Source: an uncultured Candidatus Saccharibacteria bacterium
GTDB taxonomy: Bacteria; Patescibacteriota; Minisyncoccia; UBA9983
Length of the DNA: 64,000 nt
NCBI GenBank assembly: GCA_964456855.1
Contig: CAYWCU010000001.1
Location: forward strand, 8,442-72,441
Direction: 5' to 3'
Both the position numbers and the translations under genes were made by a program. Shown here piece by piece: positions 6,044 through 57,891 of this stretch. The notes beneath the pieces are model-generated. The model did no database searches. It was not told the origin of the DNA and saw only the letters and a program-made list of their open reading frames with translations. Within the stretch, counting starts at the first letter, position 1; every line of letters starts with the position of its first letter.

Positions 6044-6407
6044 GGACCGAAATCTTGCCGGTCTGGCGAGGATGATAAAAAGGATTAAAAGACCAGCAAT
6101 GAAGAGTCAAGTCAAAACGCTTGACTCTTTTTTTCATCAAGTATATACTATGATAGTACTGAATTAACGACAGAACCTTAACAGGTGAATACAGCATTCA
6201 TCGCGCTCTGGCAGTCTATATTTATATTGGCTGTTAAGAGCACTTTAATTTTGATTTATGATCTGAATCAGAATATTATTTTTTCTTTTGTTCCGTTCTA
6301 GGCCGGATGTTCGTTTTAACGAGCACTGTAGGCCGAACGTAGATTTGATGGATTTTGAAACTTGCTCATTGAGCAATTTTCAAGAAACTCAATTCTTCGT
6401 TTTTTTG

Positions 6408-7957
<1,550 letters not shown>

Positions 7958-8457
7958 TAAATCCAAATCAATTTTTTCATCTTAGGATGAAAAGTGATTA
8001 GGTCGGTTCCGCCCTATGGCGGAATTAGGTATTGGTCTTGGAGCCTTAAATTAAGACCGGAAAAACTCGCTTAAATTTCGCTTTGCGAAACACTGGGCGG
8101 GAAGGACGGAACAAAAGAAAGAATAATGTTCAATGAATTTTTAACGAAATGCAAAAAACGGACAGCTTATGCTGTCCGTTTTGGGTTTTCATCTGCCCCG
8201 CCTTTTAATGCCATTCTCCGCATGAGCATGGCCCTTTGCCACCATTCACGCCGAACCGGCCCTCAAACTTATGGCACCCATTTTCTTTTTCATGCAAACA
8301 CCTTTTTTAATGCATAATCCAGACACATTAAATTCCTGTTTGCAAAATGGCGTTTTTTTGCTATGATAAAAAAAGTTTTGGAATTCAGAAAGGTTGCCTG
8401 CCGACGCGAAACACTCGCAATTCAGAGAAAACAGGCATTGATATTCAAACAATCCTT

Positions 8458-8532
8458 GCGCGTGTAGTTCAATGGTAGAACGCTATCCTGATAAGATAGA
8501 GGTCGTAGGTTCGATTCCTACCACGCGCACCA
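8458..8532 (+). tRNA. tRNA-Ile (anticodon GAT), CCA encoded
   Basis: Cloverleaf readable by eye: acceptor gcgcgtg/cacgcgc, anticodon loop ctGATaa, T-arm gtaggttcgattcctac, 3-prime ACCA. Confidence 0.85.
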
Positions 8533-12440: not shown

Positions 12441-14504
12441 CTAAAATTTGATTCTATCTCCCGGCTTGAGAACGCCCGACTTCAGAGGATTTTGCTCCCC
12501 ATTGGAAGTTTTGTCGGTTTTTTTTTCTTCCGTGGCACTAACGGAGTTGCTGTTTTTCATTTTTTCCTCAACGCCTTTTGCCTCCTCGTCCGAATCCGGC
12601 TTGCTTGGAAGCGGCTTCCCAAGAATGTCTTCCAAAGCGGAGCGTAAATCATTTACTCCAGGCTTCGCCTTTTTTTCATCTTGAAGGTCTTTAAGACTGA
12701 TTTTAGCGGGAGCGGAAACTGGAGACGGAACGGGTGTTTTCGCGAGGGTATCTTCGCGCGAGCGAGTTGATGGCTCCCAAACTTTCTTCTCTTCTCTTTG
12801 TCCTGCCACCCGTTCCGCGCGCTGACGAGTTGACGGCTCACGGACTTCCCCCTCTTCTCTCTGCTTCGCTGGTCGTCCCGCAGATTGCTCTACGCGTGGC
12901 GATGGTTTCCGCCACTTGCCGTCCACTCGTTCAAGGCGTCCCGAAGGTTTATTTCGTCCTCCGACAGTAAAAGAAGGTGTCTCGCGAACCGCGGGTGGCT
13001 TCTCTTGCTTTGAGATTTCAGACGCTGCGTCCCGATGGGCTTTGCAAAAAATCGGTCGCTTTTCATCCGGCTTGAACGGAACATACGTCTTTTTCTGGCA
13101 GACGGAACAAAAAGCTTCATACAGCTGCGGTTGCTGGGGTTTATCCTCGCTTTCTTCCCGAGAAGTTTGAGAAGAATTCCCTTCCTTTTTTTCCTCACCT
13201 CGAGAAGACCTCTCGGGGATAAAATCATTGCTGTGCCATTTGATAATTTCCTCTTCAATGGTCGCTTTCTCAGTGGCGTATTTTCCGCGAGAACTTGTTA
13301 TGATTTCTTCCCTGTGGGACATTTCTGAAATTTTTATCGGAGGAAGCGTGGTAGCTGAAAAAGGTCTGGACGCCACTCCATCTATCATCAATTTCAAATA
13401 AATACTGGCAAAACCCAAATTAACAATGTCCTGCACGTAAAATTGCGGAGCGAATTCTTTTTCCAAAAACTCAGCATCCGTCGCGCCGACCCTGAAACTA
13501 ACCATGGTTCCAACATTGCCGAAAACGGCGTCATTGACTCTTTCGTCCATCTGGGCGATGTATTGGTGAGCAAGTATCAGGTTGAGTCGGTATTTTCTGG
13601 CCTCAGACAAAATGTCGGCGAAAGATTCACTCGCGAAGTTTTGGAATTCATCAACATAAAGATAAAAATCCTCGCGCCGCTCTTCCGGAACATCAACGCG
13701 ACTCATTGCCGACAAGTAAATCTTGGTAATGAGCATCTGCCCAATGAGCCGCGAATTTTCTTCGCCAATTCTTCCTTTGGAAAGATTCATTATTAAAATT
13801 TTCTTCTTATCCATAACTTCGCGAATGTCAAAAGCGGATTTCGGCTGCCCGATAATGTTTCTGATAAGCGGATTGGAAACGAACTGACCAACTTTATTCT
13901 GGATGGCGGCGGTCGCCTCGGTGGCAAACTTGTCAGTGTATTTGGCGAATTCATCCGTCCAAAACGCTTTAACCACCGGGTCGGTAATTTTTGAAACCAC
14001 CTCCTTTCGGTAATTTTTGTCGGCAAACATTCGGTTAATTCCAAGAAGGGTTGAATTGGGATATTCAAGCAATGCCAAAATGGCATTGCTCAAAATATAC
14101 TCCATCCTCGCGGACCAAGCATCAACCCAAATCTTTTTGAAAACCCCAAGAAGTCCGGCGGAAACAAGATGCCGCTGGGTAGGGTCAACATTTTCCATCA
14201 CATTGAACGCGATGGGCCAATCAATATCATGCGGAGCGAAATAGACAACATCCTCAACGCGCTCTTTTGGAATAAAATCAAGCATTTTCTCAGCAAATTC
14301 GCCGTGCGGATCAATGATGGCAATTCCTTCCCCATTCTCAATATCCTGAATGGCCATATTTTCCAAGAGGGTTGTTTTTCCCATTCCAGTCTTACCGATG
14401 ATGTACATATGCTTGCTACGGTCCCTTCTTTTAATACCAAAACGCCTCCGCTCGTTGCGAAAATTAGTCTCGGCAAAATAAGTGATATTGTTCTCGTCCA
14501 TCAT
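12441..14504 (-). CDS. VirD4/TraG/TraD-like type IV secretion coupling-protein-family P-loop ATPase with C-terminal low-complexity tail and zinc ribbon
   Basis: Walker A IIGKTGMGKTT. Walker B/DE box FYLYVDEFQNF. Coupling-protein-like LILAHQYIAQM. The C-terminal 250 aa are K/E/R/P-rich with a 22-aa tandem repeat and a CSVCQK-x17-CKAH zinc ribbon. Confidence 0.6.
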   Translation of the reverse strand: MMDENNITYFAETNFRNERRRFGIKRRDRSKHMYIIGKTGMGKTTLLENMAIQDIENGEGIAIIDPHGEFAEKMLDFIPKERVEDVVYFAPHDIDWPIAFNVMENVDPTQRHLVSAGLLGVFKKIWVDAWSARMEYILSNAILALLEYPNSTLLGINRMFADKNYRKEVVSKITDPVVKAFWTDEFAKYTDKFATEATAAIQNKVGQFVSNPLIRNIIGQPKSAFDIREVMDKKKILIMNLSKGRIGEENSRLIGQMLITKIYLSAMSRVDVPEERREDFYLYVDEFQNFASESFADILSEARKYRLNLILAHQYIAQMDERVNDAVFGNVGTMVSFRVGATDAEFLEKEFAPQFYVQDIVNLGFASIYLKLMIDGVASRPFSATTLPPIKISEMSHREEIITSSRGKYATEKATIEEEIIKWHSNDFIPERSSRGEEKKEGNSSQTSREESEDKPQQPQLYEAFCSVCQKKTYVPFKPDEKRPIFCKAHRDAASEISKQEKPPAVRETPSFTVGGRNKPSGRLERVDGKWRKPSPRVEQSAGRPAKQREEGEVREPSTRQRAERVAGQREEKKVWEPSTRSREDTLAKTPVPSPVSAPAKISLKDLQDEKKAKPGVNDLRSALEDILGKPLPSKPDSDEEAKGVEEKMKNSNSVSATEEKKTDKTSNGEQNPLKSGVLKPGDRIKF

Positions 14505-24605: not shown

Positions 24606-24866
24606 ATGAAAAACATCTGTGTTTACATATTAAAGTGCGGTGACGGCACGCTTTACACCGGTTCAACCGTGGATTTGGCGAAACGGCTTCGGGAGCATAA
24701 TGAGCTGAAAAGCGGGGCGAAATACACAAAGGCGCGCCGCCCGGTGGCTCTCGCGTATCAAGAAAAATGCAAAACACTCGCGCTCGCCCGCGAACGCGAA
24801 GCGGAAATCAAACGAATGACCAGAAGCGAAAAACTCGCCCTCGTGAAAAAGCCCAAAAAGCCATAA
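24606..24866 (+). CDS. GIY-YIG nuclease-family protein (short standalone form, 86 aa)
   Basis: [27 protein letters not shown]...[10 protein letters not shown] matches the GIY-YIG core. Confidence 0.75.
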
Positions 24867-24935
24867 AATAAAAGGAAAAGATGGGCTTCCCTATCGGCGG
24901 AAGCCCTTGAATCACGCTGGAAAAAATCCTTTAAA
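24810..24935 (+). repeat. repeat copy R1 (3-prime end of GIY-YIG gene + downstream hairpin)
   Basis: Core aaacgaatgaccagaagcgaaaaactcgcNctcgtgaaaaa is shared with R2 and R3; the downstream segment ...gcttccctatcggcggaagcc...tgaatcNcgctgg is shared with R3. Confidence 0.7.
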
Positions 24936-24992
24936 TATGGGATAGTTAAAATATCAAAGGCAAAGACCGAAAAAGGATTTTGCAGAATAATT

Positions 24993-25703
24993 ATGGATAT
25001 TCCTCAAGACATTCTTAATAAATTTATAGTAAGAGAAGATTATTTGGAGTGGGTAAATAAAGAAACGTCCATTATCGCGTACTTGGATTTGACTAATATG
25101 TTCCACTGGCAAGATGTTTTGGGGTGGAAATTTCGCATAGAAGATTTAGCCGAGCAACTTTTTAGTTTTTCAAACATTAAGGAAATTAAAGTGTATTATG
25201 GCTTGAACGAAAGAGATATAAGGAACTCCGAGGCCTTTCATGCTCGCATAAGAAAAACAGGGGCAATTTTAAGAAAAAAGCCCATGAAATTTATTAAAAA
25301 AAACATTAATGAAGCCATGTTTTTCCAACGCCGCACAATGACATTATTTGACGGAGAGCAGTACATTAAAGAAAAAATTAATGAACTGATACAAGCGCTT
25401 AATGAGTCTGGAATAATCATTGAAGAGCCTAAATGTAATTTTGATGTTGAAATGGCAATGGATATGATTGATGATACAGAAAAAATGACAGCAGTGATGC
25501 TTTTTTCCGGAGATTCAGATTTAAAAGAACCCTTAGAGAGATTAAAGATAAAAGGAAAGAATATTGGTGTGGTGGGGGTGCGCGGAAAAGTGGCGGGAGA
25601 ATTGCACGAAATTAAGAACAAATATATTGATTTTGGTAAGTTTTATACAGGGAAAAGGGTCTATACAAAAAGCGAAAATCCCGCTTTGGGCGGGACCGCG
25701 TGA
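24993..25703 (+). CDS. NYN/LabA-like (PIN-related) nuclease-domain protein
   Basis: AYLDLTNMF...CNFDVEMAMDMIDD...AVMLFSGDSDLKEPLERLKIKGKNIGVVG, typical of NYN/LabA. Confidence 0.65.
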   Translation: MDIPQDILNKFIVREDYLEWVNKETSIIAYLDLTNMFHWQDVLGWKFRIEDLAEQLFSFSNIKEIKVYYGLNERDIRNSEAFHARIRKTGAILRKKPMKFIKKNINEAMFFQRRTMTLFDGEQYIKEKINELIQALNESGIIIEEPKCNFDVEMAMDMIDDTEKMTAVMLFSGDSDLKEPLERLKIKGKNIGVVGVRGKVAGELHEIKNKYIDFGKFYTGKRVYTKSENPALGGTA

Positions 25704-25725
25704 TTAGTAGGATTGCTCCTACGCC

Positions 25726-25835
25726 ATCAATATAGCATACCAAGTTGCTAGTATCAAGAGAATTGTGGATAAGTGAAAACGAATGACCAGAAGCGAAAAA
25801 CTCGCACTCGTGAAAAAAAACAAAAAGGCCGTTGG
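25726..25835 (+). repeat. repeat copy R2
   Basis: tcaatatagcatac...gtggataagtgaaaacgaatgaccagaagcgaaaaactcgcactcgtgaaaaaa; an in-frame TGA lies just before the shared core. Confidence 0.7.
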
Positions 25836-25866
25836 AAATTAAAGGTTTTGAGTATAACATAAGAAA

Positions 25867-26268
25867 ATGAAAAAGGATTATTTAGAATGGCATAAGAAAA
25901 AAGAGAAAATTGACTGTAAAAATAAGCATATTTTTTTTCATGAACGAGAAGTTTGGTGGTGTTCTCTTGGTGTGAATGTCGGTTATGAGCAAGACGGAAG
26001 AGGAGACAATTTTTCCCGCCCCGTGGTTATATTGAAAAAATTTAATCTTGATATTTGTTTGGTTGTTCCGCTTACGACAAGCAAGAAAACGGGAAAGTAT
26101 TATTTTTCAATTGGAGATGTTGAGGGGAAAAACGCGTCGGCTGTATTGTCTCAGATAAGACTTATTGACCAGAAAAGGTTTTTTAAGAAAGTGGAGATGA
26201 TTGATGAAGAGATTTTTGATTGCTTAATTGACGCTGTTGTTAGTGTTAATTTTAAAAAAGGGGCTTAA
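25867..26268 (+). CDS. PemK/MazF-family toxin-like protein (no adjacent antitoxin ORF seen)
   Basis: REVWWCSLGVNVGYEQDG...RPVVILKK...CLVVPLTTS...SAVLSQIRLID matches the MazF/PemK fold pattern. Confidence 0.65.
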   Translation: MKKDYLEWHKKKEKIDCKNKHIFFHEREVWWCSLGVNVGYEQDGRGDNFSRPVVILKKFNLDICLVVPLTTSKKTGKYYFSIGDVEGKNASAVLSQIRLIDQKRFFKKVEMIDEEIFDCLIDAVVSVNFKKGA

Positions 26269-26276
26269 AACAGTTT

Positions 26277-26302
26277 GCCCCCGCTCCTTGCGGAGCGGGG
26301 GC
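26277..26302 (+). terminator. GC-rich hairpin (gcccccgctcc-ttgc-ggagcgggggc)
   Basis: Perfect 11-bp stem immediately after the toxin gene stop. Confidence 0.55.
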
Positions 26303-26350
26303 GAGGCCGAGGCCGTTTGTATGTTCATATTATCAAATCCAACCCAAAAG

Positions 26351-26500
26351 TCAATAGAGCATATCAACAGGGTGTGGATAAGTGAAAACGAATGACCAGA
26401 AGCGAAAAACTCGCGTTCGTGAAAAAGGCCGTTAGGTAAGAAGGAAAGGACGAGCTTCTTTATCGGCGGAAGCCGGTGAATCGCGCTGGGAAAACCCCAT
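26351..26500 (+). repeat. repeat copy R3
   Basis: tcaatagagcatat...gtggataagtgaaaacgaatgaccagaagcgaaaaactcgcgttcgtgaaaaaggccgtt...agcttctttatcggcggaagccggtgaatcgcgctggg. Confidence 0.7.
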
Positions 26501-26622
26501 AAAATATGATATATTTAGGGAAATTATGGAAAAAGACGGGAAAACAAACCCGGCCTCGCGACAAGCGCAAAAATTAGCTAACGCTATCAGTGTATCAACC
26601 GATAAGCTTTTGAAATAGAAAT

Positions 26623-27786
26623 ATGGCAAACAAAAATCTTACAAATGCAAAACGGGCAAAGAACGATGAGTTTTATACCCAGTTCGGCGATATCCAAAAA
26701 GAGATTGAGGCGTATTTGGAATACGATCCCGATGTATTTCGGGGCAAGGTGGTGTATTGTAATTGTGATGATCCGTTTGAGAGCAACTTCTTTCGCTATT
26801 TCGTACTCAATTTCAACAAGCTTGGATTGAAACAGCTTATCACCACCAGCTATAAACCTTCACCTATAGCCAACACGCAACTGGGATTGTTTGGCGATGA
26901 CAAGACCCTTGCGAAATCAAAAGGCCGTCCTAAGGTAAATGCTAACAAATTTATTATCAACGAAGTGGGTGATATGGATGGCGACGGCGAGTTCAATTTG
27001 AAAGATGTTGCCATACAGTTAAGGGCAAATAAACACAACGAATGGGAGCCCCTAGAAAATAATGGCGATTTCCGTAGTGATGAATGTATAAATCTACTTA
27101 AACAATCCGATATCGTGGTAACCAATCCGCCGTTCAGCTTATTCCGAGAATATGTAAAACAACTTATGGAGTATAAGAAAAAATTTGTGATCATCGGAAA
27201 TATGAATGCGATCACTTATAAAGAAATATTTCCTTTAATTAAAGACAATAAAATATGGCTTGGGGCTGGTAAAAACGATGGACGAAATGTGTGGTATCAA
27301 GTTCCTAATAATTACGAAAATTTTCACAAAGAGGAAAATGGCAAGAAATACGCATTTGTTGCGGGAACAATCTGGTTTACCAATCTTGATCACGGACGAC
27401 GCCATCAACCGTTGCCACTAATGACTAAAGCAGAAGTGATTAAATTTGGTACAAAAAAACCGTTCGAAAAATATGACAACTATAATGCAATCGAGGTATC
27501 ATTCGTTAAATACATTCCAAGTGACTACAAAGGTGTGATGGGTGTGCCAATCAGTTTTCTTGGTAAATATTCCCCCGATCAATTTAAAATTGTTGGAATG
27601 TGTGAAAATGAAGATTTGTATAAATTAAAAACAAAAGTTTATACAACGGCGGAGTGTAAGCAGGCATATTTAGATAAATTTGGCAAAAACGGAACTTATG
27701 ATTTGAACGCAAGTGGGGTGGTTATTCGAAACGGTTTATTGGAAAAAGTTTACCAAAGGATACTTATTAAACATAAGAAAAAATAA
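26623..27786 (+). CDS. EcoRI-methylase-family N6-adenine DNA methyltransferase
   Basis: N-terminus [14 protein letters not shown]...VVYCNCDDP and catalytic VTNPPFSL (NPPF), the hallmark pattern of the M.EcoRI/M.RsrI family. Confidence 0.7.
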
Positions 27787-27787
27787 T

Positions 27788-28954
27788 ATGAAAACAAACT
27801 TAAAAACTACCATTACCGTTAAAGATATCTGCGAAGGGTTTGTCTATAATGAACTTGAAGGCAAGGGCCTGTTTGGCTTGTCTGGCACGCTTACTATTCA
27901 GCCGGAGTACCAACGAAACTATATCTATGCCTTAGACGGCGGTAAAAAAGAGGTCGCCGTCATTGAGTCATTGCTCAAAGGTTACCCGATAGGTTTGATT
28001 TATTTCAATAAAGTAAACGACAAGAATTTAGAGGTTTTGGACGGACAACAACGCATTACTAGCGTTGGGCGATTTGTTAATGGTAAGTTTGCAATCAAGG
28101 ATGAAAACGGAATGCAATATTTCAGTACTATGGCAGAAGACAAGAAGTCCAAGATTTTAAAAACAAAACTTCTCATTTACGAATGCGAAGGTACTGAAAG
28201 TCAGATTAAAGAATGGTTTAAGACAATCAACATTGCAGGTGTCCCACTTAAACCCCAAGAATTTCTCAACGCTATTTATTCCGGACCATTTGTAACACTC
28301 GCAAAGGAAGAGTTTAGCAATAGCCAAAACGCAAATACGCAAAAATGGAGCGCGTACATATCGGGTGTCGTTAATCGCCAAGATTTTCTGGAGCAAGCGC
28401 TTGATTGGGTAAGCAAGGGAAACATTGACGATTATATGAGCCGTCATCGCAAAGATACAAATATTAAAGAGCTAAAAAATTATTTCAACAGCGTAATTGA
28501 TTGGGTTTCTGGGGTGTTTATAGATGTTGAAAGTGAAATGCGTGGTCTTGAGTGGGGGCGAATGTATAAGGAATATCACAAAAACGCTTATGATCCAAAG
28601 AAAGTTTCAAGGGAAGTTCACAAACTTTACGCCGATTCATATATCAAAAACCGTAAAGGTGTTTTTGAGTATATTCTCGGCGGTTCAACTGATACGAAAT
28701 TACTAAATGTCAGAGTATTTGACGAGGCAACTAAAAAGTCGGTTTATGCAAAGCAGACAAAGAGCGCAAAAGCTGGTGGTAAATCAAATTGTTCGCATTG
28801 CGCAATGGGTCATGATGCTAACAAAGAAAAAATTTGGGATCTTTCTGAAATGGATGCAGACCATGTTAGTGCTTGGAGTAAAGGTGGCGCGACAGATATA
28901 AAAAATTGTGAGGTGTTGTGTAAGACGCATAATCGGGCGAAAGGAAATCGATAA
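27788..28954 (+). CDS. DUF262 (ParB/Srx-like, DGQQR) + C-terminal HNH nuclease protein, GmrSD-like architecture
   Basis: LDGQQRITS motif in the N-terminal domain. C-terminal CSHC...[12 protein letters not shown]...[15 protein letters not shown] is an HNH/His-Me finger. The ATG lies 1 nt after the methylase stop; the track ORF starts at an upstream GTG. Confidence 0.65.
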
Positions 28955-29009
28955 AAAATGTAAGATGTCATGCAAGAAGTGTAGTAGAAGGAAATTGGGG
29001 AATAAATTT

Positions 29010-30080
29010 ATGAAACAAGCAAATCAAAAATTAAAAGCAATTGATTTTTTCTGCTCAGGCGGAGGAATGAGTTTTGGTTTGCAACAAGCTGGAATAGATG
29101 TCATTGCTGGAATTGATTTTGATTCTGATTGTAAAGATACATACGAGGCAAATATAAAAGGAGCAGAATATATTCTTGCTGATGTTGAAGAATTAAATGC
29201 CGAGGATTTATCAAAAAAAATAGACATAAAAAAGAATGATGATGATCTTATTTTGGTTGGATGTAGTCCGTGCCAGTATTGGACAATTATTCGGACAAAT
29301 AAGAGTAAGTCTCAAAAATCAAAAAATTTGCTTCATGAATTTCATAGATTTGTTAAGTATTACAATCCTGGATATGTTGTTGTAGAAAATGTCCCGGGGA
29401 TTTTAAATAAACATAAAGAAAGCGGGCTAAATAAATTTGTAAAGGACTTAGAAAAGCAAGGGTATGCAGTTCGCTATGAAGTGGTGAATTTAAATGAGTA
29501 TGGAGTGCCAGAAACAAGAAAAAGATTTTCATTGATAGCTAATAGAGTAACTAAAGATGAATTATTTCCTAAAGCAAATAATTCTTGTCCAGTGGTCTCT
29601 GATTTTTTGGGCGAAAAAAACAGTTTTTATAAAATACCCGCTGGGCACAAGGATCCTACGGATTTAATGCATACAACAGCCAAATTAAGTAAAAAAAATA
29701 TAAAAAGGTTAAAATTGACACCTAAAAACGGTGGCACACGACAGGCATGGGCGGATACTGATCTACAAATTAATGCATATAAAAAGAAAAATTCCAATAT
29801 ATCATTCAGGGACACATATGGACGAATGTCTTGGGATAAACCAGCACCAACTATTACTACAAAATTTTTTAGCATATCAAACGGTAGATTTGCACATCCA
29901 AATGAAAATAGAGCAATTTCCATAAGAGAAGGAGCGACATTACAAACTTTTCCTAAAACATATAAATTTATCGGAGGTAGTATTGCTACAATCGCACGAA
30001 TGATTGGAAATGCTGTTCCTCCGCTTTTTGCTAAACAAATTGGAAAAACTATAATCAAAAATCATTATGACAAAAAATAA
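29010..30080 (+). CDS. DNA (cytosine-5)-methyltransferase
   Basis: Motif I FFCSGGGMSFG, motif IV GCSPCQYWT, motif VI ENVPGIL, motif X GNAVPP. An alternative start is at 28965. Confidence 0.85.
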   Translation: MKQANQKLKAIDFFCSGGGMSFGLQQAGIDVIAGIDFDSDCKDTYEANIKGAEYILADVEELNAEDLSKKIDIKKNDDDLILVGCSPCQYWTIIRTNKSKSQKSKNLLHEFHRFVKYYNPGYVVVENVPGILNKHKESGLNKFVKDLEKQGYAVRYEVVNLNEYGVPETRKRFSLIANRVTKDELFPKANNSCPVVSDFLGEKNSFYKIPAGHKDPTDLMHTTAKLSKKNIKRLKLTPKNGGTRQAWADTDLQINAYKKKNSNISFRDTYGRMSWDKPAPTITTKFFSISNGRFAHPNENRAISIREGATLQTFPKTYKFIGGSIATIARMIGNAVPPLFAKQIGKTIIKNHYDKK

Positions 30081-31725
30081 TAAAACAAAACTTCAGATGA
30101 CTTTTGACCCATTGGTTATAGATGACCTTGGTGCAAAACTTTATTCTACTTTACCGCCGATAATTTCTGAATTAATTGCAAATGGTTATGATGCTTGTGC
30201 AAAAAAAGTATTTATAGAGCTAACAGGGGCGGGTGAAGATAAAAAAATTATTATTACAGATGATGGTTTCGGTATGAGTTTCGATGAGATTGATGATAAA
30301 TATTTACGAATAGGTCGTAAAAGACGAGAAGTTGCCGATGAAAAAATTGAATGTGAAAGACTCCCAATTGGAAAAAAGGGGTTAGGTAAATTAGCTTTTT
30401 TTGGTATTGCAAAAAAAGCAGTTATAAAAACTGTAAACAATGGAGAAGAGATTATATTTGAAATGAATTGGGACAAAATTCAAGATACCCCAGAAGGGGA
30501 TGATTATGAGCCAGTTTTTAGCAGAAAAAAAACTACTGAAAATAATGGTACAGAGATTATTTTATCTGAGATAGACAGAAAATCTGATTTTAAAACAGAG
30601 AGTCTTAAAATTAGTATTTCAAACTATTTTATCTTTGATGAAGATTTTAAGGTTTTTATCAAAGATGATTCAATGGGAAACTTTGAGGAGATTGATAATG
30701 AAATTAGATACAAACAAGGTGACAGGGGGAAAGATTTTTCATGGTCGTTTCCAGAAGTTGTCAAAAAACTTGAATTGGAAAAAGAATTTCCGTTTGCCCT
30801 AGATATTAAGGGTAAAATTATTTTATTTAATTTACCAGTTAAAAATAAGCTAAGAGGTGTTACTTTATTTTCTAGAAAAAAATTAGTAAGTCTCCCAGAA
30901 TCATTTCCAGTTCAGGGATCGAGTCATTTCTATCAATATTTAACTGGTTGGCTAGAAATAGATTTTATAGATAATCTAAAGCCAGATGTTATTGCCACAA
31001 ATAGAAGTAGTCTTAATTGGAATGATGAAAATCTTGAACAATTACAATTATTTTTGGAAAAAATAATAAATTATATACACAGAGAATGGAGAGTTCTCAT
31101 AGAAAACAGAAAAGAGAAAAGAGTGAAAGAGAAATATGGCGTAGATATTCCAGTATGGAGAGAAACCAACAAAAATAATCCTACAATTGTTAAAAATATT
31201 GATAAACTTGCTAAAGTATTTAATGAACCAGAAAAAATTGGCGAAAGTGAGGCGATAGATGTTTTAGGAATTGTATATGGTCTTGCTCCAGAAAATGCCG
31301 ATTTTGTACTCTGGTCTGGATTACACCAAAAAATAACGGAAAATACTCTTATAAAAGAATCTTTTTTTGCTGGGAAATATTTAGCAGCATCACGTGAAGC
31401 GGTACAAATTTATAATGAAACTGTGCAAAGTGTGTCTGGTTACGATGAAGCCGATTATGCTTTAATGGAAAAATCATACGGAAAAGAAGGACATAAGAAA
31501 ATTTGGGTTACAAACAAGTCTAATGATAATGAGAAAAATATAGATGAAGGGCAAAAACTAATTTCACAAGGAATAATGGTTGGTTTTAAGAATCCTGGTG
31601 TTAGCCACACAAGTCTCACGAAAGGACTGCAAAATAATGACTTTTCTCCACGAAATTGTTTGGATATATTAAGTACAATATCTTATTTATTTGACAGACT
31701 AGAGAAACGAAAACAACCAAGATAG
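30067..31725 (+). CDS. GHKL-superfamily (MORC/MutL-like HATPase_c_3) ATPase, R-M-associated
   Basis: N-box ELIANGYDA and G1 box IIITDDGFGMS. Overlaps the Dcm stop by 14 nt. No nuclease motif recognised. Confidence 0.6.
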   Translation: MTKNNKTKLQMTFDPLVIDDLGAKLYSTLPPIISELIANGYDACAKKVFIELTGAGEDKKIIITDDGFGMSFDEIDDKYLRIGRKRREVADEKIECERLPIGKKGLGKLAFFGIAKKAVIKTVNNGEEIIFEMNWDKIQDTPEGDDYEPVFSRKKTTENNGTEIILSEIDRKSDFKTESLKISISNYFIFDEDFKVFIKDDSMGNFEEIDNEIRYKQGDRGKDFSWSFPEVVKKLELEKEFPFALDIKGKIILFNLPVKNKLRGVTLFSRKKLVSLPESFPVQGSSHFYQYLTGWLEIDFIDNLKPDVIATNRSSLNWNDENLEQLQLFLEKIINYIHREWRVLIENRKEKRVKEKYGVDIPVWRETNKNNPTIVKNIDKLAKVFNEPEKIGESEAIDVLGIVYGLAPENADFVLWSGLHQKITENTLIKESFFAGKYLAASREAVQIYNETVQSVSGYDEADYALMEKSYGKEGHKKIWVTNKSNDNEKNIDEGQKLISQGIMVGFKNPGVSHTSLTKGLQNNDFSPRNCLDILSTISYLFDRLEKRKQPR

Positions 31726-31726
31726 C

Positions 31727-32134
31727 ATGAATGATAAGCTAGTTTCAAAAATCATAGAAAGAGATCGTATTTTTGGAAAGTTGTGTTTTGAGGCACAGGA
31801 TTCTTATAAACAAGAAAATTATTTTTCTGCATTGGCTTGTTTATTTGTTTTAGCAGAGCAAATTATAAAATTTTCTGTTGATAGAGTTGATGGTAATTTT
31901 CATAAAGCAATTATAGAAGCAAGAGAAAAGAATTTAATTAATGACATAGAATTTCAATTTCTTAATTCTTTGAGAGAAGTAAGAAATAAAATATTTCATG
32001 AGAGTCATTATCCGACAGGTCTTGAAATTGAAGGCAAGTTTTGGTCATTTAGTGAGAACGAAACAAAAGAGTTAATTTATAGAGAATTTTCTCCAAAAGT
32101 ATTTAGATTAGTATTTAAGTTAGTTGCATTTTAA
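31727..32134 (+). CDS. hypothetical small helical protein translationally coupled to the GHKL ATPase
   Basis: The ATG lies 1 nt after the upstream TAG stop. Confidence 0.4.
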   Translation: MNDKLVSKIIERDRIFGKLCFEAQDSYKQENYFSALACLFVLAEQIIKFSVDRVDGNFHKAIIEAREKNLINDIEFQFLNSLREVRNKIFHESHYPTGLEIEGKFWSFSENETKELIYREFSPKVFRLVFKLVAF

Positions 32135-32194
32135 GAGAGCAACGCTTGCGTACACAAAACTTATCAATTATCAGTAAAACTTTAATAAAAATAT

Positions 32195-33478
32195 ATGAAC
32201 AAAATTATATGTCCGAATTGTAAAAAAGATTTTGAGATGGATGATGCCGGCTTTGCTGATATTTTAAAGCAAGTTAGAGATGAGGAATTTAACAAAGATC
32301 TAAAAGAACGGGAGCTGATATTCATTAAGGATAAAGAAAACGCTGTTAAGCTTGCCGAGGCTAATATCACAAAAACACTACAAGAAAATCTTGCGAAAAA
32401 AGACAAAGAATTGGCTGAACTGAAAGCTGAAAAAGAACTTGAACTTGTTGAGCTTTTGGCTAAGAAAGAATCTGAAATAGCTGATATGAAATCAAAAATG
32501 GATAGTGTAGAGATTGAGAAAAAACTCGCTGTAACTGAGGCGGTTAATTCTGTTGAAAAAGAGCGAGATGAACTGGCTGGTGAATTAAAAAGCAAAGATA
32601 CAGAGAAACAATTGCTTGAAACATCGTTAAAAGAAAAGTTTTCTGACGAACTTAAAATTAAAGACAATATCATTAAGATGAAAGACGAGGAAATTGCTCT
32701 TCGTAAAGATATGAAAATTAAACTCTCAACTAAAATGGTCGGGGAAACCTTAGAGCAGCATTGCGAAACCGAATTTAATAAACTTCGCGCCACTGGTTTC
32801 CAAGACGCGTATTTTGAAAAAGACAACGACGCAAAAACCGGTAGCAAGGGTGATTATATTTATCGCGAAACTGATAAGGTTGGAAATGAAATTATTTCTA
32901 TAATGTTTGAAATGAAAAATGAAGGCGATGAGACCGCTACCAAGAAAAAAAATGAAGACTTTTTACGCGAACTTGATAAAGACCGTAAAGAAAAGAAATG
33001 CGAGTATGCTGTCCTTGTTACGCTATTGGAAGCCGAAAATGAACTATACAATACTGGTATCGTTGATGTTTCTCATAAACATTCCAAAATGTATATAGTT
33101 CGCCCGCAATTTTTCATCCCCATAATAACTCTGTTGCGTAACGCATCAATGAACTCCCTTAAATATAAAGCCGAGCTTGCCTTGGTAAGAAATCAAAATA
33201 TTGATATTACAAACTTTGAAGATAATGTAAATAAATTTAAAGAAGGATTCGCAAAAAATTACGATTTGGCTAGTCGTAAATTCAAAAACGCCATTGAAGA
33301 AATAGACAAAACTATAAACCATCTCCAAAAAACTAAAGATGCGCTATTGTCGTCTGAAAATAACCTCCGGCTCGCTAAGAATAAAGCAGAAGATCTGACA
33401 ATTAAAAAACTAACGCGCGGGAATACTACAATGACAGCTAAATTTGAAGAAATTTCCAATCCCAATAAAACAACATAG
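32195..33478 (+). CDS. DUF2130-like protein (N-terminal zinc ribbon + long coiled coil)
   Basis: [32 protein letters not shown]... matches the characteristic DUF2130 start. Confidence 0.5.
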
Positions 33479-33482
33479 AAAA

Positions 33483-33776
33483 ATGAACTACATAATTTTA
33501 ATCATCGTTGGTATTGTTGGAATTGCGCTTGGGGCGTCTTTTGCGCGAAAACGGAAAAGTGGTTTGATTGCAAGGCAGGCAAGGAAAAAAACGGAGAGTA
33601 AGGAAAAGGTTTTGGAGTTTTTGCGGGAGAACGGGAAAATCAAAAATAACGATGTTGAGGGACTGGTTGGAGTTTCCAATGCCACGGCTGAGCGGTATTT
33701 GGACGAGCTGGAGAAAGAAGGAAAACTGACACAGTGTGGAAATATCGGACAAAATGTTTTTTATACGCTAAGGTAG
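33483..33776 (+). CDS. membrane-anchored winged-helix DNA-binding protein
   Basis: N-terminal TM helix, then VGVSNATAERYLDELEKEGKLTQCG, a wHTH of the kind found at Fic/RecG-like C-termini. Confidence 0.5.
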   Translation: MNYIILIIVGIVGIALGASFARKRKSGLIARQARKKTESKEKVLEFLRENGKIKNNDVEGLVGVSNATAERYLDELEKEGKLTQCGNIGQNVFYTLR

Positions 33777-33807
33777 CGATTAACTCAACGCCGTTGAGTT
33801 AATCGCT
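33775..33807. terminator. perfect 15-bp inverted repeat hairpin (agcgattaactcaac/gttgagttaatcgct)
   Basis: Overlaps the stop of the wHTH gene. Confidence 0.45.
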
Positions 33808-33904
33808 ATCAGATAAAAATAAATCGCAAAAGTGGCGGTATTTTGAAAAATAGAGGGCAGAAGCAACATTATGTTTTTTGTCAATTTTTTGGTATTATGT
33901 CTAT

Positions 33905-34921
33905 ATGAAATTTCCTCGCTCAAAAAAAGTCATTTTTTCAAACAATAAAGGCGGGGTTGGGAAAACTACCCTTGCTTTTAATTGCGCTGTTTCGTTTGCT
34001 CAAAAAGGATACAAAACCGTCTTGATAGACCTTGACCCGCAGTGCAATCTTAGCCGACTTGCCATGGGTGAAGATTATTACAGAAAACATCTTTTTTCTG
34101 AGAGTGAAAAAACCGTTGCCGATGTGTTGAAAGGAATTGTGCGTGGAGGGTCAGATATTGACCTGACTGCGCAGTTTTTGCCTGTCAATGCAAGCCCCAA
34201 TCTTTCTTTATTAAAAGGGGACATTAATCTTTCATTGTATGAAAGTCTTTTGATAACCGCATACGGTCAGGCCGCTTCCGGGCAACAGATAGGATATTTT
34301 CAGACAAGCGCGATAGATCGTTTTTTAAGAGAGAAAGGGTTAAGTGAAGAAATTGACATTTTTGTCATTGATACATCGCCGAGCCTCGGGCTTCTTAATC
34401 AAGTAATTTTACTCGGCGCGGATTATTTCATAGTGCCAGTTTTACCGGACGCTTTCAGTGTTCAAGGTATAGAAAATTTGGGAACAGTATATGAAAGATG
34501 GAAAATAAACTGGAAAAATAGCGCCAAGGCTCTTGCTGGAGACACAGAGACAAAATTTGTTTTACACGGAGACCCCCTTTTCGCAGGATATATAATTAAT
34601 TCATATAATGTATATGGTGAACAGCCAATATCTGATCATCGCGCTTGGATGAAAAAAATACCAAACAAAGTTAGAGAGTATCTCTCTGAAAAGCACTGCA
34701 GAAATGGACTAGTGGAGAGTAGTTGGAAAAACCCTTTGCAGATTGTGCAGGATTATGGAAGAATTCCCTCAAAATGCCAAGAATTGGGTGTCGCGATTTT
34801 TAACCTAAATCCTTCGCAAGTAGCGGATCATCACCAAGGCACTAAAGAAAATATTGAAAAATCAAAAGAAGAATTTAAAAGTCTTTCAGAAAATATTATA
34901 AATATCTTAAAGAGCTATTAG
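33905..34921 (+). CDS. ParA/MinD-family P-loop ATPase with C-terminal extension
   Basis: Deviant Walker A NNKGGVGKTT; the ATG at 33905 is within the longer track ORF. Confidence 0.75.
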   Translation: MKFPRSKKVIFSNNKGGVGKTTLAFNCAVSFAQKGYKTVLIDLDPQCNLSRLAMGEDYYRKHLFSESEKTVADVLKGIVRGGSDIDLTAQFLPVNASPNLSLLKGDINLSLYESLLITAYGQAASGQQIGYFQTSAIDRFLREKGLSEEIDIFVIDTSPSLGLLNQVILLGADYFIVPVLPDAFSVQGIENLGTVYERWKINWKNSAKALAGDTETKFVLHGDPLFAGYIINSYNVYGEQPISDHRAWMKKIPNKVREYLSEKHCRNGLVESSWKNPLQIVQDYGRIPSKCQELGVAIFNLNPSQVADHHQGTKENIEKSKEEFKSLSENIINILKSY

Positions 34922-35015
34922 AATTCAACTGTTTTTTTGGTTGCGGGGATGAAGTGTTTGTGGTATTGTTATTGCAATCAAAAGTCCTGCGGGGCTTTTT
35001 TTATGAATAAGCATT

Positions 35016-38070: not shown

Positions 38071-39045
38071 ATGGCATTCATTGACGAAATAACAATATTC
38101 GCGAAGGCGGGAGACGGCGGTGACGGCGTCGTCCGCTGGCTGCACGAAAAAAGAAAGGAATTCGGCGGCCCCGCCGGTGGCGACGGTGGACGTGGGGGCG
38201 ATGTTTACGCGCGCGCCACCCGCAACATCCACCTCTTGTCAAAATACAAAACAAAGAAGAAACTGGAGGCTGGGCGGGGCGATGACGGCCAGGGCAAGAC
38301 TTTCAGTGGCGCGAACGGCGAAGACCTTGAGATAGAGCTTCCCATCGGGTCTATAATAACAAACGTAAAAACGGAAGAAAAAATACGCCTCTCTGAAGAA
38401 GGGGAAAAAGTTCTTCTGCTTCGCGGAGGTTTCGGAGGAAGGGGAAACAAATCATTCAAAAGTTCAACAAACAGAAGCCCCAAGCAATTCACGAAAGGAA
38501 AACCTGGCGAGGAGGCGGAGTTTTTCGTTGAAGTTGAGTTAATCGCTGATATCGGACTAATCGGACTTCCCAACGCCGGGAAAACAACACTTCTCAACGA
38601 AATGACGAACGCTCAAGCGAAAATCGGCGACTATCCATTCACAACCCTTGAACCAAACCTGGGAGAGTTTTACGGATACATAATATCTGACATTCCGGGG
38701 CTCATTGAAGGCGCGGCGGAAGGAAAAGGGTTGGGGCATAAATTCCTCCGCCATATCAGGCGCACAAAGATTTTAGTTCATCTGATTTCGCTTGAAAATG
38801 AAGACCCGGCAAGCGCCTACGGCGCAATAAGAAAAGAACTTGGAAAGTTTGACGAGGAACTGGTAAAAAAAAAAGAAATAGTGGTCCTGACCAAAACAGA
38901 CCTCATAGACGACAAAGAAAAACTTGATAAAATAATCGCAAAGATGAAAAAAGTAACGCCCGAAGTCATTGCCATAACGATGTATGACAATACGCAAATT
39001 AAGGCGCTCCAAAACAAACTCATCGGAGAGCTTTCCGGCGAATAA
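38071..39045 (+). CDS. obg: GTPase Obg/CgtA (no C-terminal TGS extension)
   Basis: Glycine-rich Obg fold (GGDGGRGGDV), then the G domain ADIGLIGLPNAGKTTLL...DIPGLIEGA. Confidence 0.85.
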   Translation: MAFIDEITIFAKAGDGGDGVVRWLHEKRKEFGGPAGGDGGRGGDVYARATRNIHLLSKYKTKKKLEAGRGDDGQGKTFSGANGEDLEIELPIGSIITNVKTEEKIRLSEEGEKVLLLRGGFGGRGNKSFKSSTNRSPKQFTKGKPGEEAEFFVEVELIADIGLIGLPNAGKTTLLNEMTNAQAKIGDYPFTTLEPNLGEFYGYIISDIPGLIEGAAEGKGLGHKFLRHIRRTKILVHLISLENEDPASAYGAIRKELGKFDEELVKKKEIVVLTKTDLIDDKEKLDKIIAKMKKVTPEVIAITMYDNTQIKALQNKLIGELSGE

Positions 39046-57724: not shown

Positions 57725-57891
57725 TTTTAATTTTATCCATCGCGGTCCGGAACTCGCGGCTCAAAACAATTTCGCGCCGCAATCCGATGACCGCAATGTT
57801 ATATGATTATTTATCGACCTTAATTTATAATAACACTTCTTTTATTATACCTTATTAAAAGCAAAAGCCTAAAGCGGAATGTGGATAAAAC

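Follow-up and report, generated by a model that had tools for sequence, protein, structure and literature searches.

A DUF2130 gene, a winged-helix gene with its palindrome and an orphan ParA-like gene at the edge of a Parcubacteria defence island

Soj/ParA ATPases of chromosomes and of type Ib plasmids have a deviant Walker A motif with a signature lysine, Walker A' and B motifs and a common fold. The winged helix-turn-helix (wHTH) domain is found in DUF977 proteins, in the lambda Ren-like exclusion proteins of PHROG 142 and at the C-terminus of SoFic, and RmuC combines a coiled coil with a PD-(D/E)XK nuclease. Here we describe three adjoining genes related to these systems, for a DUF2130 protein, a wHTH protein and a ParA-like ATPase, which occupy positions 32,195 to 34,921 of a 64,000-nucleotide (nt) stretch of contig CAYWCU010000001.1 (hereafter the window). 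The window is chromosomal DNA of a Parcubacteria bacterium (Candidate Phyla Radiation (CPR), Patescibacteria), and the genes follow two restriction-modification (R-M) systems in an AT-rich block of genes at ~24.9-34.9 kb. An earlier note on this DNA, made by a model from the letters and a list of open reading frames (ORFs), had suggested that all three could be accessory or regulatory components of the island, or that the ParA marks the backbone of a former plasmid or integrative element. On balance we lean towards a different reading, in which the stretch holds three separate units and is neither a plasmid remnant nor a conserved module. The DUF2130 gene would be the last cargo gene of a mosaic defence island; the wHTH gene and the palindrome at its stop codon would form a conserved two-part unit of Parcubacteria; and the ParA-like ATPase would be a resident stand-alone gene of a CPR-wide family, with its own promoter and terminator. 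This removes two tempting annotation errors, namely 'ParA as a plasmid or integrative and conjugative element remnant' and 'three accessory genes of an R-M island', and it leaves the wHTH-palindrome pairing and the CPR-wide orphan ParA-like family as the parts that merit follow-up.

Distribution of the three genes

The DUF2130, wHTH and ParA genes are all real, as judged from their ORFs and Pfam matches. Their surroundings were compared over 28 distinct loci with the ParA-like gene (the window and 27 others), 80 metagenomic loci with a DUF2130 gene plus 17 DUF2130 homologues on contigs of a viral collection, and five contexts of the wHTH gene (the window, L125, L126, L174 and L175). A close wHTH is absent from all 27 other loci with the ParA-like gene, one of which (L013) has a DUF2130 gene; the ParA-like gene is present in 1 of the 80 metagenomic DUF2130 loci (L105) and in none of the four other wHTH loci. 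The wHTH gene is encoded in none of the 80 metagenomic DUF2130 loci, and the palindrome motif that accompanies it is missing from all 97 DUF2130 loci. The order DUF2130-wHTH-ParA, whose conservation in related genomes the earlier note had proposed to check, is not conserved in the loci compared, and homologues of the genes occur independently in other contexts, which speaks against the trio as a linked unit. When all ORFs within 5 kb were clustered, no recurrent neighbour of the ParA-like gene was found across the 28 loci; no Pfam family is common to more than 4 of the 139 proteins neighbouring ParA-like genes, and clustering the neighbours at the 80 metagenomic loci gave no recurrent DUF2130 partner. 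The ParA-like gene adjoins a ribosomal-protein operon and polysaccharide genes in L008, comes after a tRNA synthetase gene and an IS66 insertion sequence in L015 (with MreB ~7 kb upstream) and stands beside an SNF2 helicase gene in L017. On such neighbourhood evidence DUF2130 is a plausible accessory of the island and the wHTH gene a possible one, but for the ParA-like gene such a role is unsupported.

A site-binding protein (wHTH), a centromere-like site (the palindrome) and a ParA-like ATPase could also be taken for a minimal positioning system without ParB. In P1, the gene for the binding protein, parB, is followed by its site, parS, and the order of gene and site here resembles that arrangement; moreover, a paralogue that joins the same wHTH to a disordered N-terminus is encoded two genes beyond the ParA-like gene in L013 and follows the wHTH gene and its motif in L126 and L175. 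However, the ParA-like gene is missing from the four other wHTH loci, no wHTH-family gene is present at 26 of the 27 other ParA-like loci even when a hidden Markov model search is included (the exception being L013), and the motif is absent from all ParA-like loci, the single palindrome going with the wHTH gene instead. We therefore consider such a system very improbable.

The ParA-like ATPase

The third gene (33905..34921, plus strand) encodes an orphan ParA/MinD-family ATPase of 338 amino acids (aa), so that the ParA-family assignment of the earlier note stands while its length of 339 aa does not. The protein has a deviant Walker A motif (NNKGGVGKTT) and the further motifs DLDPQ and IDTSPS; K15, K20, D42, D44 and D156 are invariant in 36 sequences, and Pfam gives matches to AAA_31 (E=3e-30) and CbiA (E=5e-16). 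In the ParA/MinD superfamily the deviant Walker A has the form KGGxxGK[ST]. The signature lysine and the Walker A' and B aspartates place it in the ParA/MinD deviant Walker A superfamily, and a Foldseek search with the predicted structure finds Soj, ParA, delta protein, McdA and MinD at E ~1e-9. The model has a predicted template modelling score (pTM) of 0.73 and a mediocre predicted local distance difference test score (pLDDT) of 63, which counsels against leaning on it too heavily. Given that all catalytic motifs of the deviant Walker A family are present, the protein should act as an ATP-dependent dimer switch as other ParA/MinD proteins do, presumably on a cargo or partner that is not encoded next to it.

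Conservation within the family is high. Among the top 120 homologues identity is 75-92% and the length is nearly always 338 aa, species-representative genomes of Moran-, Kaiser-, Magasanik-, Collier-, Woese-, Shapiro- and Saccharibacteria carry the protein at 57-93% identity, and a genome bin labelled Caenarcaniphilales carries it at 54%, which gives a range of 54-93% across Parcubacteria, Microgenomates and Saccharibacteria. The C-terminal region (approximately residues 200-338) is specific to the family. Its 139 residues match no Pfam family, and the profile search of the 'C-terminal extension' that had been proposed as a check gave 45 matches among 1.84 billion cluster representatives, which, fragments aside, are proteins of 303-362 aa carrying the region at their C-terminal end. 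The region is found only within its own family and hence is a family hallmark and not a borrowed domain. What emerges is a compact, unusually conserved ParA/MinD family of Patescibacteria without an encoded partner, in tiny host-dependent bacteria about whose cell-cycle and positioning machinery little is known; an orthologue with 61-66% identity may be present in cultivable Saccharibacteria and could be studied there.

The closest match to a known structure is DIP2308 of Corynebacterium diphtheriae (PDB 3PG5), which gives both the best sequence match (E=1.7e-22, residues 8-203) and the best fold match, the latter over the full length including the C-terminal region (TM-score 0.59-0.74). The two proteins are of similar length (361 aa for DIP2308 against 338 aa) but only ~22% identical. 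DIP2308 is uncharacterised, so the match names a subfamily and not a mechanism, and we found no literature on DIP2308/3PG5 or on the CPR ParA-like protein. Unlike Soj/ParA, the ParA-like gene has no ParB or parS, ~130 extra C-terminal residues seen only in the family, and a monocistronic and apparently leaderless transcript. More distant relatives are Orf317 of the Pf1 prophage and an 'AAA family ATPase' of Pantoea plasmids, 27-30% identical over ~90% of the length; PHROG 164 matches residues 7-335. These are likewise stand-alone long ParA-like genes without an adjacent ParB, near the end of an element or beside defence genes, whereas members of the CPR family are chromosomal, show much stronger conservation and were not found in viral contigs.

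A partition ParA (ParABS or type I par) was considered and rejected. Neither ParB nor centromere-like repeats were found in the window region or at the 27 other ParA-like loci, which bears out the earlier remark that none are visible, and no iterons, tandem repeats or parS lie next to the ParA-like gene in the window. Scores are far under the curated thresholds as well, with 64.9 bits against a cut-off of 180 for the ParA_partition model NF041546 and values far below the cut-offs for RepA, SopA and PrgP; the PADLOC models give weak P-loop matches only. Since no ParB, replication gene or iterons were found, and no integrase among the window ORFs scanned, the proposed origin as a former plasmid backbone is without support.

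The gene appears to be its own transcription unit. An extended -10 element, TGgTATTAT (33890..33898, plus strand), ends 6 nt before the ATG, and a TGnTAtaAT-like box stands 5-8 nt before the ATG in 10 of the 10 ParA-like loci aligned (one of them lacks the TG). Transcription usually starts 7 nt downstream of the -10 element, a position occupied here by the A of the ATG itself, which implies a leaderless mRNA. Downstream of the gene a terminator-like hairpin is followed by a T-run (34980..35002, plus strand, from sequence and fold), and this terminator is canonical with its U-run, unlike the palindrome at 33774. With a strong palindrome and a promoter between them, the wHTH and ParA-like genes are probably transcribed separately.

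In our reading the ParA-like gene is a resident at whose flank small defence islets with R-M and insertion sequence (IS) genes have repeatedly landed. Identity among the ParA-like proteins falls roughly with taxonomic distance, the GC content at third codon positions (GC3) of the gene tracks that of the host over 0.18-0.60, some loci (L008 and L017) are purely housekeeping with no island, and no orthologue was found in the viral contigs of IMG/VR. Several observations nevertheless pull the other way. The GC3 of the window's ParA-like gene is 0.34, which is 2.3 standard deviations below the core genes of the window (0.475) and near that of the island, and in 19 of 23 genomes the GC3 of the gene is lower than that of its neighbours, yet it tracks the host; GC3 is thus ambiguous and was discarded as an island marker for this gene. 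In the Ryanbacteria locus L004 the pair of R-M1 genes (the first of the two R-M systems) and the ParA-like gene are all equally diverged (72-74% DNA identity). A neighbour-joining tree of the ParA-like proteins conflicts in places with the names of the metagenome-assembled genomes: Kaiserbacteria are split over two clades, and the Woesebacteria (Microgenomates) sequence L032 groups on very short branches with the Saccharimonadales sequences L033 and L038. Finally, the immediate vicinity of ParA-like genes is enriched in R-M and IS genes (ResIII, Methylase_S, EcoEI_R_C, AAA_15 and IS200 transposases within 3.5 kb) relative to the genes 5.5-10 kb away, which are housekeeping. Jointly, the GC3, the L004 pair, the tree conflict and the enrichment leave room for a mobile ParA-like gene or for one that forms the right end of the island.

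One alternative makes 26.6-34.9 kb one mobile defence island, with the ParA-like gene as the maintenance gene at its right end, comparable to the ParA/Soj-like genes that stand alone at the termini of integrative elements and of filamentous prophages. To the points just given it adds that R-M genes precede the ParA-like gene in the window, L004, L013, L022 and L026, that IS elements adjoin it in L010 and L015, and that the full-length Pantoea relatives are on plasmids while Orf317 lies ~0.9 kb from att2 of the Pf1 prophage. However, the scan of window ORFs found no integrase or recombinase, and the proposed element is not flanked by repeats; the gene occurs without an island (L008, L017), tracks host GC3, lacks IMG/VR orthologues and is transcriptionally autonomous in every locus of the ten-locus promoter alignment; and the window shares no noncoding homology with L004. 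We regard this alternative as unlikely. As a separate observation, the ParA-like sequences of L033 and L038 are 95% identical to one another, and the clustering of L032 with them would reflect either horizontal transfer or a mis-binned contig.

The winged-helix gene and its palindrome

The second gene (33483..33776, plus strand) encodes a 97-aa protein that matches HTH_24 (29.8 bits against a cut-off of 21.9) and DUF977 (25.9 against 22.1). All homologues are 97-98 aa long and begin with MNY, hence the start was set at the ATG at 33483, which puts the gene 4 nt past the DUF2130 stop without overlap. Judged from the sequence, the N-terminus (MNYIILIIVGIVGIALGASFA and then RKRK) would form a membrane anchor, in keeping with the earlier description as a transmembrane helix plus wHTH protein. 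There are 606 homologues, which are 65-73% identical. The wHTH gene is the 3' end of a defence-type operon in four of the five contexts, never more than 17 nt from the gene upstream and overlapping it in one case; apart from DUF2130 in the window, the upstream gene is HsdR in L125, a Type ISP R-M gene with DUF3644 in L174, an HATPase_c gene with a small gene in L175 and AAA_28 in L126. The gene was not found in viral contigs. In contrast to the DUF977, Ren-like and Fic proteins whose domain it shares, the protein has an N-terminal membrane anchor, a fixed size of 97-98 aa and a nearly invariant palindrome 3' of its gene, none of which has to our knowledge been described for those families. Neither does it resemble an R-M controller (C) protein: C proteins are small Xre-type HTH proteins, encoded upstream of the nuclease gene and acting on a C-box operator in their own promoter, whereas this is a winged-helix protein with a membrane anchor, encoded last in its operon and with the palindrome 3' of the gene.

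The palindrome (33774..33808) is perfect, with arms of 17 nt and 1 nt between them, and starts at the wHTH stop codon, TAG 33774-33776. The earlier note had correctly seen the stop within a perfect hairpin but gave it as 15 bp at 33775-33807. As RNA it would fold with -28.4 kcal/mol (z = -7.6). The palindrome has the form GATTAACTCAAC-N-GTTGAGTTAATC and the conserved motif is CTCAACG-N(1-3)-GTTGAGTTAAT, or CTCAACG-N(1-3)-NTGAGTTAAT in its degenerate form. The motif stands, nearly invariant, next to all five distinct wHTH orthologues, 8 nt past the wHTH stop in L125 and 1 nt past the stop codon in L175; in L126 and L174 part of the left arm has been lost to decay, with no change in the right arm. 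A search of the 1.82 Mb of fetched loci and the window, using a pattern with a 2-3-nt spacer, found the wHTH-adjacent copies and two extra copies, also in wHTH-bearing loci, and no others (the window's copy, with a spacer of 4 nt, was confirmed separately). Viral contigs gave no match. Pairing extends over 93% of the alignment cells, with no variation in the inner 10-11 bp and covariation in the two outer pairs, although the wHTH proteins encoded beside the palindromes are only ~70% identical. Both extra copies bracket genes. In L125 two genes lie between the palindrome and a second, identical one 2.9 kb downstream, just ahead of which is a 48-nt copy of the wHTH 3' end at 90% identity. In L174 the Type ISP R-M gene, DUF3644 and the wHTH gene are enclosed by two copies, with a large serine recombinase gene 1.5 kb away, and the copy at 1915-1938 lies upstream of a gene and not after one.

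The simplest function would be that of a transcription terminator or RNA-stability hairpin for the DUF2130-wHTH transcript and nothing more, a reading to which the location at the stop codon, the folding energy and the two covarying outer pairs all lend weight. However, intrinsic terminators pair a hairpin with a T-run, and no T-run follows the palindrome on either strand, whereas the next gene, the ParA-like one, has a canonical one; a terminator scan of the window did not report the palindrome, which is unique in the window and hence not a general terminator type. A plain terminator also leaves unexplained the invariant sequence beside genes for much more divergent proteins, the decay of the left arm alone in L126 and L174, and the copy upstream of a gene in L174. 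We therefore find this reading, on its own, quite unlikely, although in our own reading the palindrome would in addition end the DUF2130-wHTH transcript.

A second explanation takes the palindrome as a site of site-specific recombination, att-like or marking a cassette boundary, with segments inserted at the wHTH 3' end and palindrome. The bracketed genes of L125, with their copied wHTH 3' end, and those of L174, with the serine recombinase gene nearby, are what such insertion might leave behind. The arms also read RYYYAAC / GTTRRRY and thereby resemble integron attC cores, and the window itself holds an analogous repeat of a 'gene 3' end plus hairpin' at a GIY-YIG gene, flanking NYN and MazF genes. 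An attC site has the structure R''(RYYYAAC)-L''...L'-R'(GTTRRRY), is 57-141 bp long with extrahelical bases, and has an array and/or an IntI integrase gene nearby. ACTCAAC and GTTGAGT fit both core consensus sequences, but the palindrome is ~35 bp long and has neither inner L boxes nor extrahelical bases; no tyrosine recombinase was found among the window ORFs scanned and there is no attC-type array in the window. Furthermore, the window has a single copy and no recombinase nearby, and L126 and L175 have one copy each, so that bracketing is seen in two cases in total. A recombination or boundary role is possible, if somewhat doubtful.

Ahead of it we place, as a tentative preference, binding of the palindrome by a dimer of the wHTH protein; the two roles are not mutually exclusive, and in the window the palindrome would also mark the right edge of the island. 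Just five contexts of the wHTH gene were compared, which counts against too confident a view, and the function of the palindrome remains a lead. A broader proposal, which we hold to be unlikely as a whole, is that the wHTH gene and palindrome are an undescribed Parcubacteria element that caps defence operons, the palindrome being a recombination or cassette-boundary site or the anchor of a DNA-membrane tether, and that, separately, the ParA-like ATPase marks an insertion hotspot for defence islets. In any case, the pairing and the gene-bracketing repeats offer a testable handle on how CPR genomes gain defence genes.

Three side observations concern the wHTH family and the palindrome. The paralogues mentioned above form a family of 181-199 aa. 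They start with MPPEE, their N-terminal half is disordered and rich in Pro, Glu and Ala, and the wHTH at their C-terminal end is ~50% identical to that of the window. Their genes lie directly after the wHTH gene and motif in L126 (5371-5916) and L175 (8357-8956) and two genes past the ParA-like gene in L013 (7424-7987), positions that weakly suggest a connection of the wHTH family with the ParA family but are statistically unconvincing. L174 and L175 are parts of the same JGI contig, Ga0265296_1000007 (693,323 bp), which therefore carries two wHTH paralogues, each with a palindrome and each trailing a defence-like operon; they lie near opposite contig ends on opposite strands and would be ~14.5 kb apart if the contig is a closed circle. 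Lastly, inside obg, at 38532-38548 on the minus strand, there is an exact 12-mer match to the palindrome arm GATTAACTCAAC (15 of 17 bases; ~0.28 expected), in a stretch that encodes the conserved Obg peptide VELIAD; this match is probably due to chance.

DUF2130 and the defence island

The first gene (32195..33478, plus strand) encodes a DUF2130 protein of 427 aa with a CxxC knuckle, a coiled coil of ~165 aa, a predicted PD-(D/E)XK core and a helical tail. Pfam PF09903 matches residues 153-408 with E=3.1e-86 (289 bits against a gathering threshold of 26.7), and more than 8000 homologues exist, 80-88% identical across very different CPR lineages. The earlier note had described an N-terminal zinc ribbon followed by about 350 aa of coiled coil. 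A single CxxC knuckle (C6-P-N-C9; 32210..32221, plus strand) is indeed present, with C6, P7 and C9 invariant in 32 sequences, but there is no second Cys/His pair, C6 and C9 alone being conserved near the N-terminus, and Zn_ribbon_4 stays below threshold (E=0.034, 14.5 bits against a cut-off of 30.3). As speculation, the one CxxC could share a zinc ion between two chains. The extended coiled coil is not borne out: the structure model has one helix at residues 17-181, an alpha-beta core at 186-302 and helices at 304-407. The predicted PD-(D/E)XK core (32750..33100, plus strand) has an alpha-beta-beta-beta-alpha-beta topology in the model, and E187/E191, D220 and E239-M-K241 are all invariant. 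That the model is mediocre (pLDDT 61, pTM 0.34) tells against a firm assignment. A Foldseek search with this low-confidence model found nothing significant (best E=0.2, the weak matches including some restriction enzymes), and neither a profile search against PDB sequences nor the PADLOC defence-system models gave a match. RmuC is the nearest analogue, with a long coiled coil followed by a PD-(D/E)XK core; unlike RmuC, DUF2130 has an N-terminal CxxC, no membrane anchor and a location in defence islands, and no sequence match links the two even at a Pfam E of up to 10. DUF2130 is listed as PD-(D/E)XK family 109 in PMC3424549, a placement with which the invariant residues and the predicted topology agree.

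DUF2130 is linked to defence and R-M neighbourhoods. Within two genes on either side these functions are abundant without a fixed partner. Its neighbours include ResIII, SWI2_SNF2, Eco57I, MmeI, MTES_1575, SLFN, BrxL and Type I R-M with OLD; in L013, DUF2130 lies inside a Type I R-M operon and adjoins an OLD-like ATPase gene. The likeliest role is that of a DNA nuclease, dimeric through its coiled coil, that acts with or alongside restriction. As a solitary predicted nuclease it would cut DNA as a helper to restriction or as a backup for it, which makes DUF2130 a widespread nuclease candidate of defence islands.

The island holds, in order, NYN, MazF-like, R-M1 and R-M2 genes, after which come DUF2130, the wHTH gene and the ParA-like gene. 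GC3 is 0.29 ± 0.085 from NYN to DUF2130 (24993-33478; n=8) against 0.475 ± 0.059 for the other genes, and that of DUF2130, at 0.31, is island-like. The two Type II R-M systems (26623-32134, plus strand), recognised by profile matches, are R-M1, with an EcoRI-like methyltransferase and a GmrSD_N-HNH restriction endonuclease (26623-28954, plus strand; GC3 0.38), and R-M2, with Dcm, a BbrUII/HgiDII-like restriction endonuclease and a DUF4145-like gene whose match is weak and below the Pfam threshold (29010-32134, plus strand; GC3 0.15-0.21). The island is therefore a mosaic, and given their very different GC3 the two adjacent systems were probably acquired separately. In L045, DUF2130 directly follows an EcoRI-like methyltransferase and GmrSD-HNH endonuclease pair, the same type as R-M1, which together with the divergent GC3 of R-M2 suggests that R-M2 was inserted later between R-M1 and DUF2130. 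The R-M1 orthologues upstream of the ParA-like gene in L004 are 72-80% identical, and there a RhuM gene has been inserted between methyltransferase and nuclease. The chromosomal setting is evident from genes for 16S rRNA (6401-7967), nine tRNAs and type IV pili, along with obg, ftsEX and prfB, and the same locus was recovered on contigs of three sequencing runs.

Two further copies of the 3' end of the GIY-YIG gene (24606-24866) are present, one behind the NYN gene and one behind the MazF-like gene (repeat D1: 24797-24850, 25764-25817 and 26373-26426), and a hairpin-bearing segment downstream of it is repeated once (D2: 24872-24948 and 26441-26517). The two later D1 copies are 96% identical to one another and 80% identical to the end of the GIY-YIG gene itself. 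The arrangement suggests that single-gene cassettes were inserted one after another at a site made up of a gene 3' end and a hairpin, much as in L125 at the wHTH gene. Three perfect DnaA-box 9-mers, TTATCCACA, occur on the minus strand (25764-25772, 26373-26381 and 57880-57888; 0.36 expected), two of them inside the repeated junction elements of the NYN and MazF cassettes.

Elsewhere in the window, 12441-14504 (minus strand) encodes a VirD4/TrwB-type coupling protein of 687 aa with a treble-clef zinc finger; the scan of window ORFs recognised no other conjugation genes. After the 16S rRNA gene come tRNA-Ile and then a mechanosensitive-channel gene (6401-8532); the window lacks a 23S rRNA gene, and the rRNA genes hence seem to be unlinked. 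The cumulative GC skew of the window has its minimum at ~17-19 kb and its maximum at ~39 kb, and both extremes coincide with switches in gene orientation, from minus to plus and then from plus to minus.

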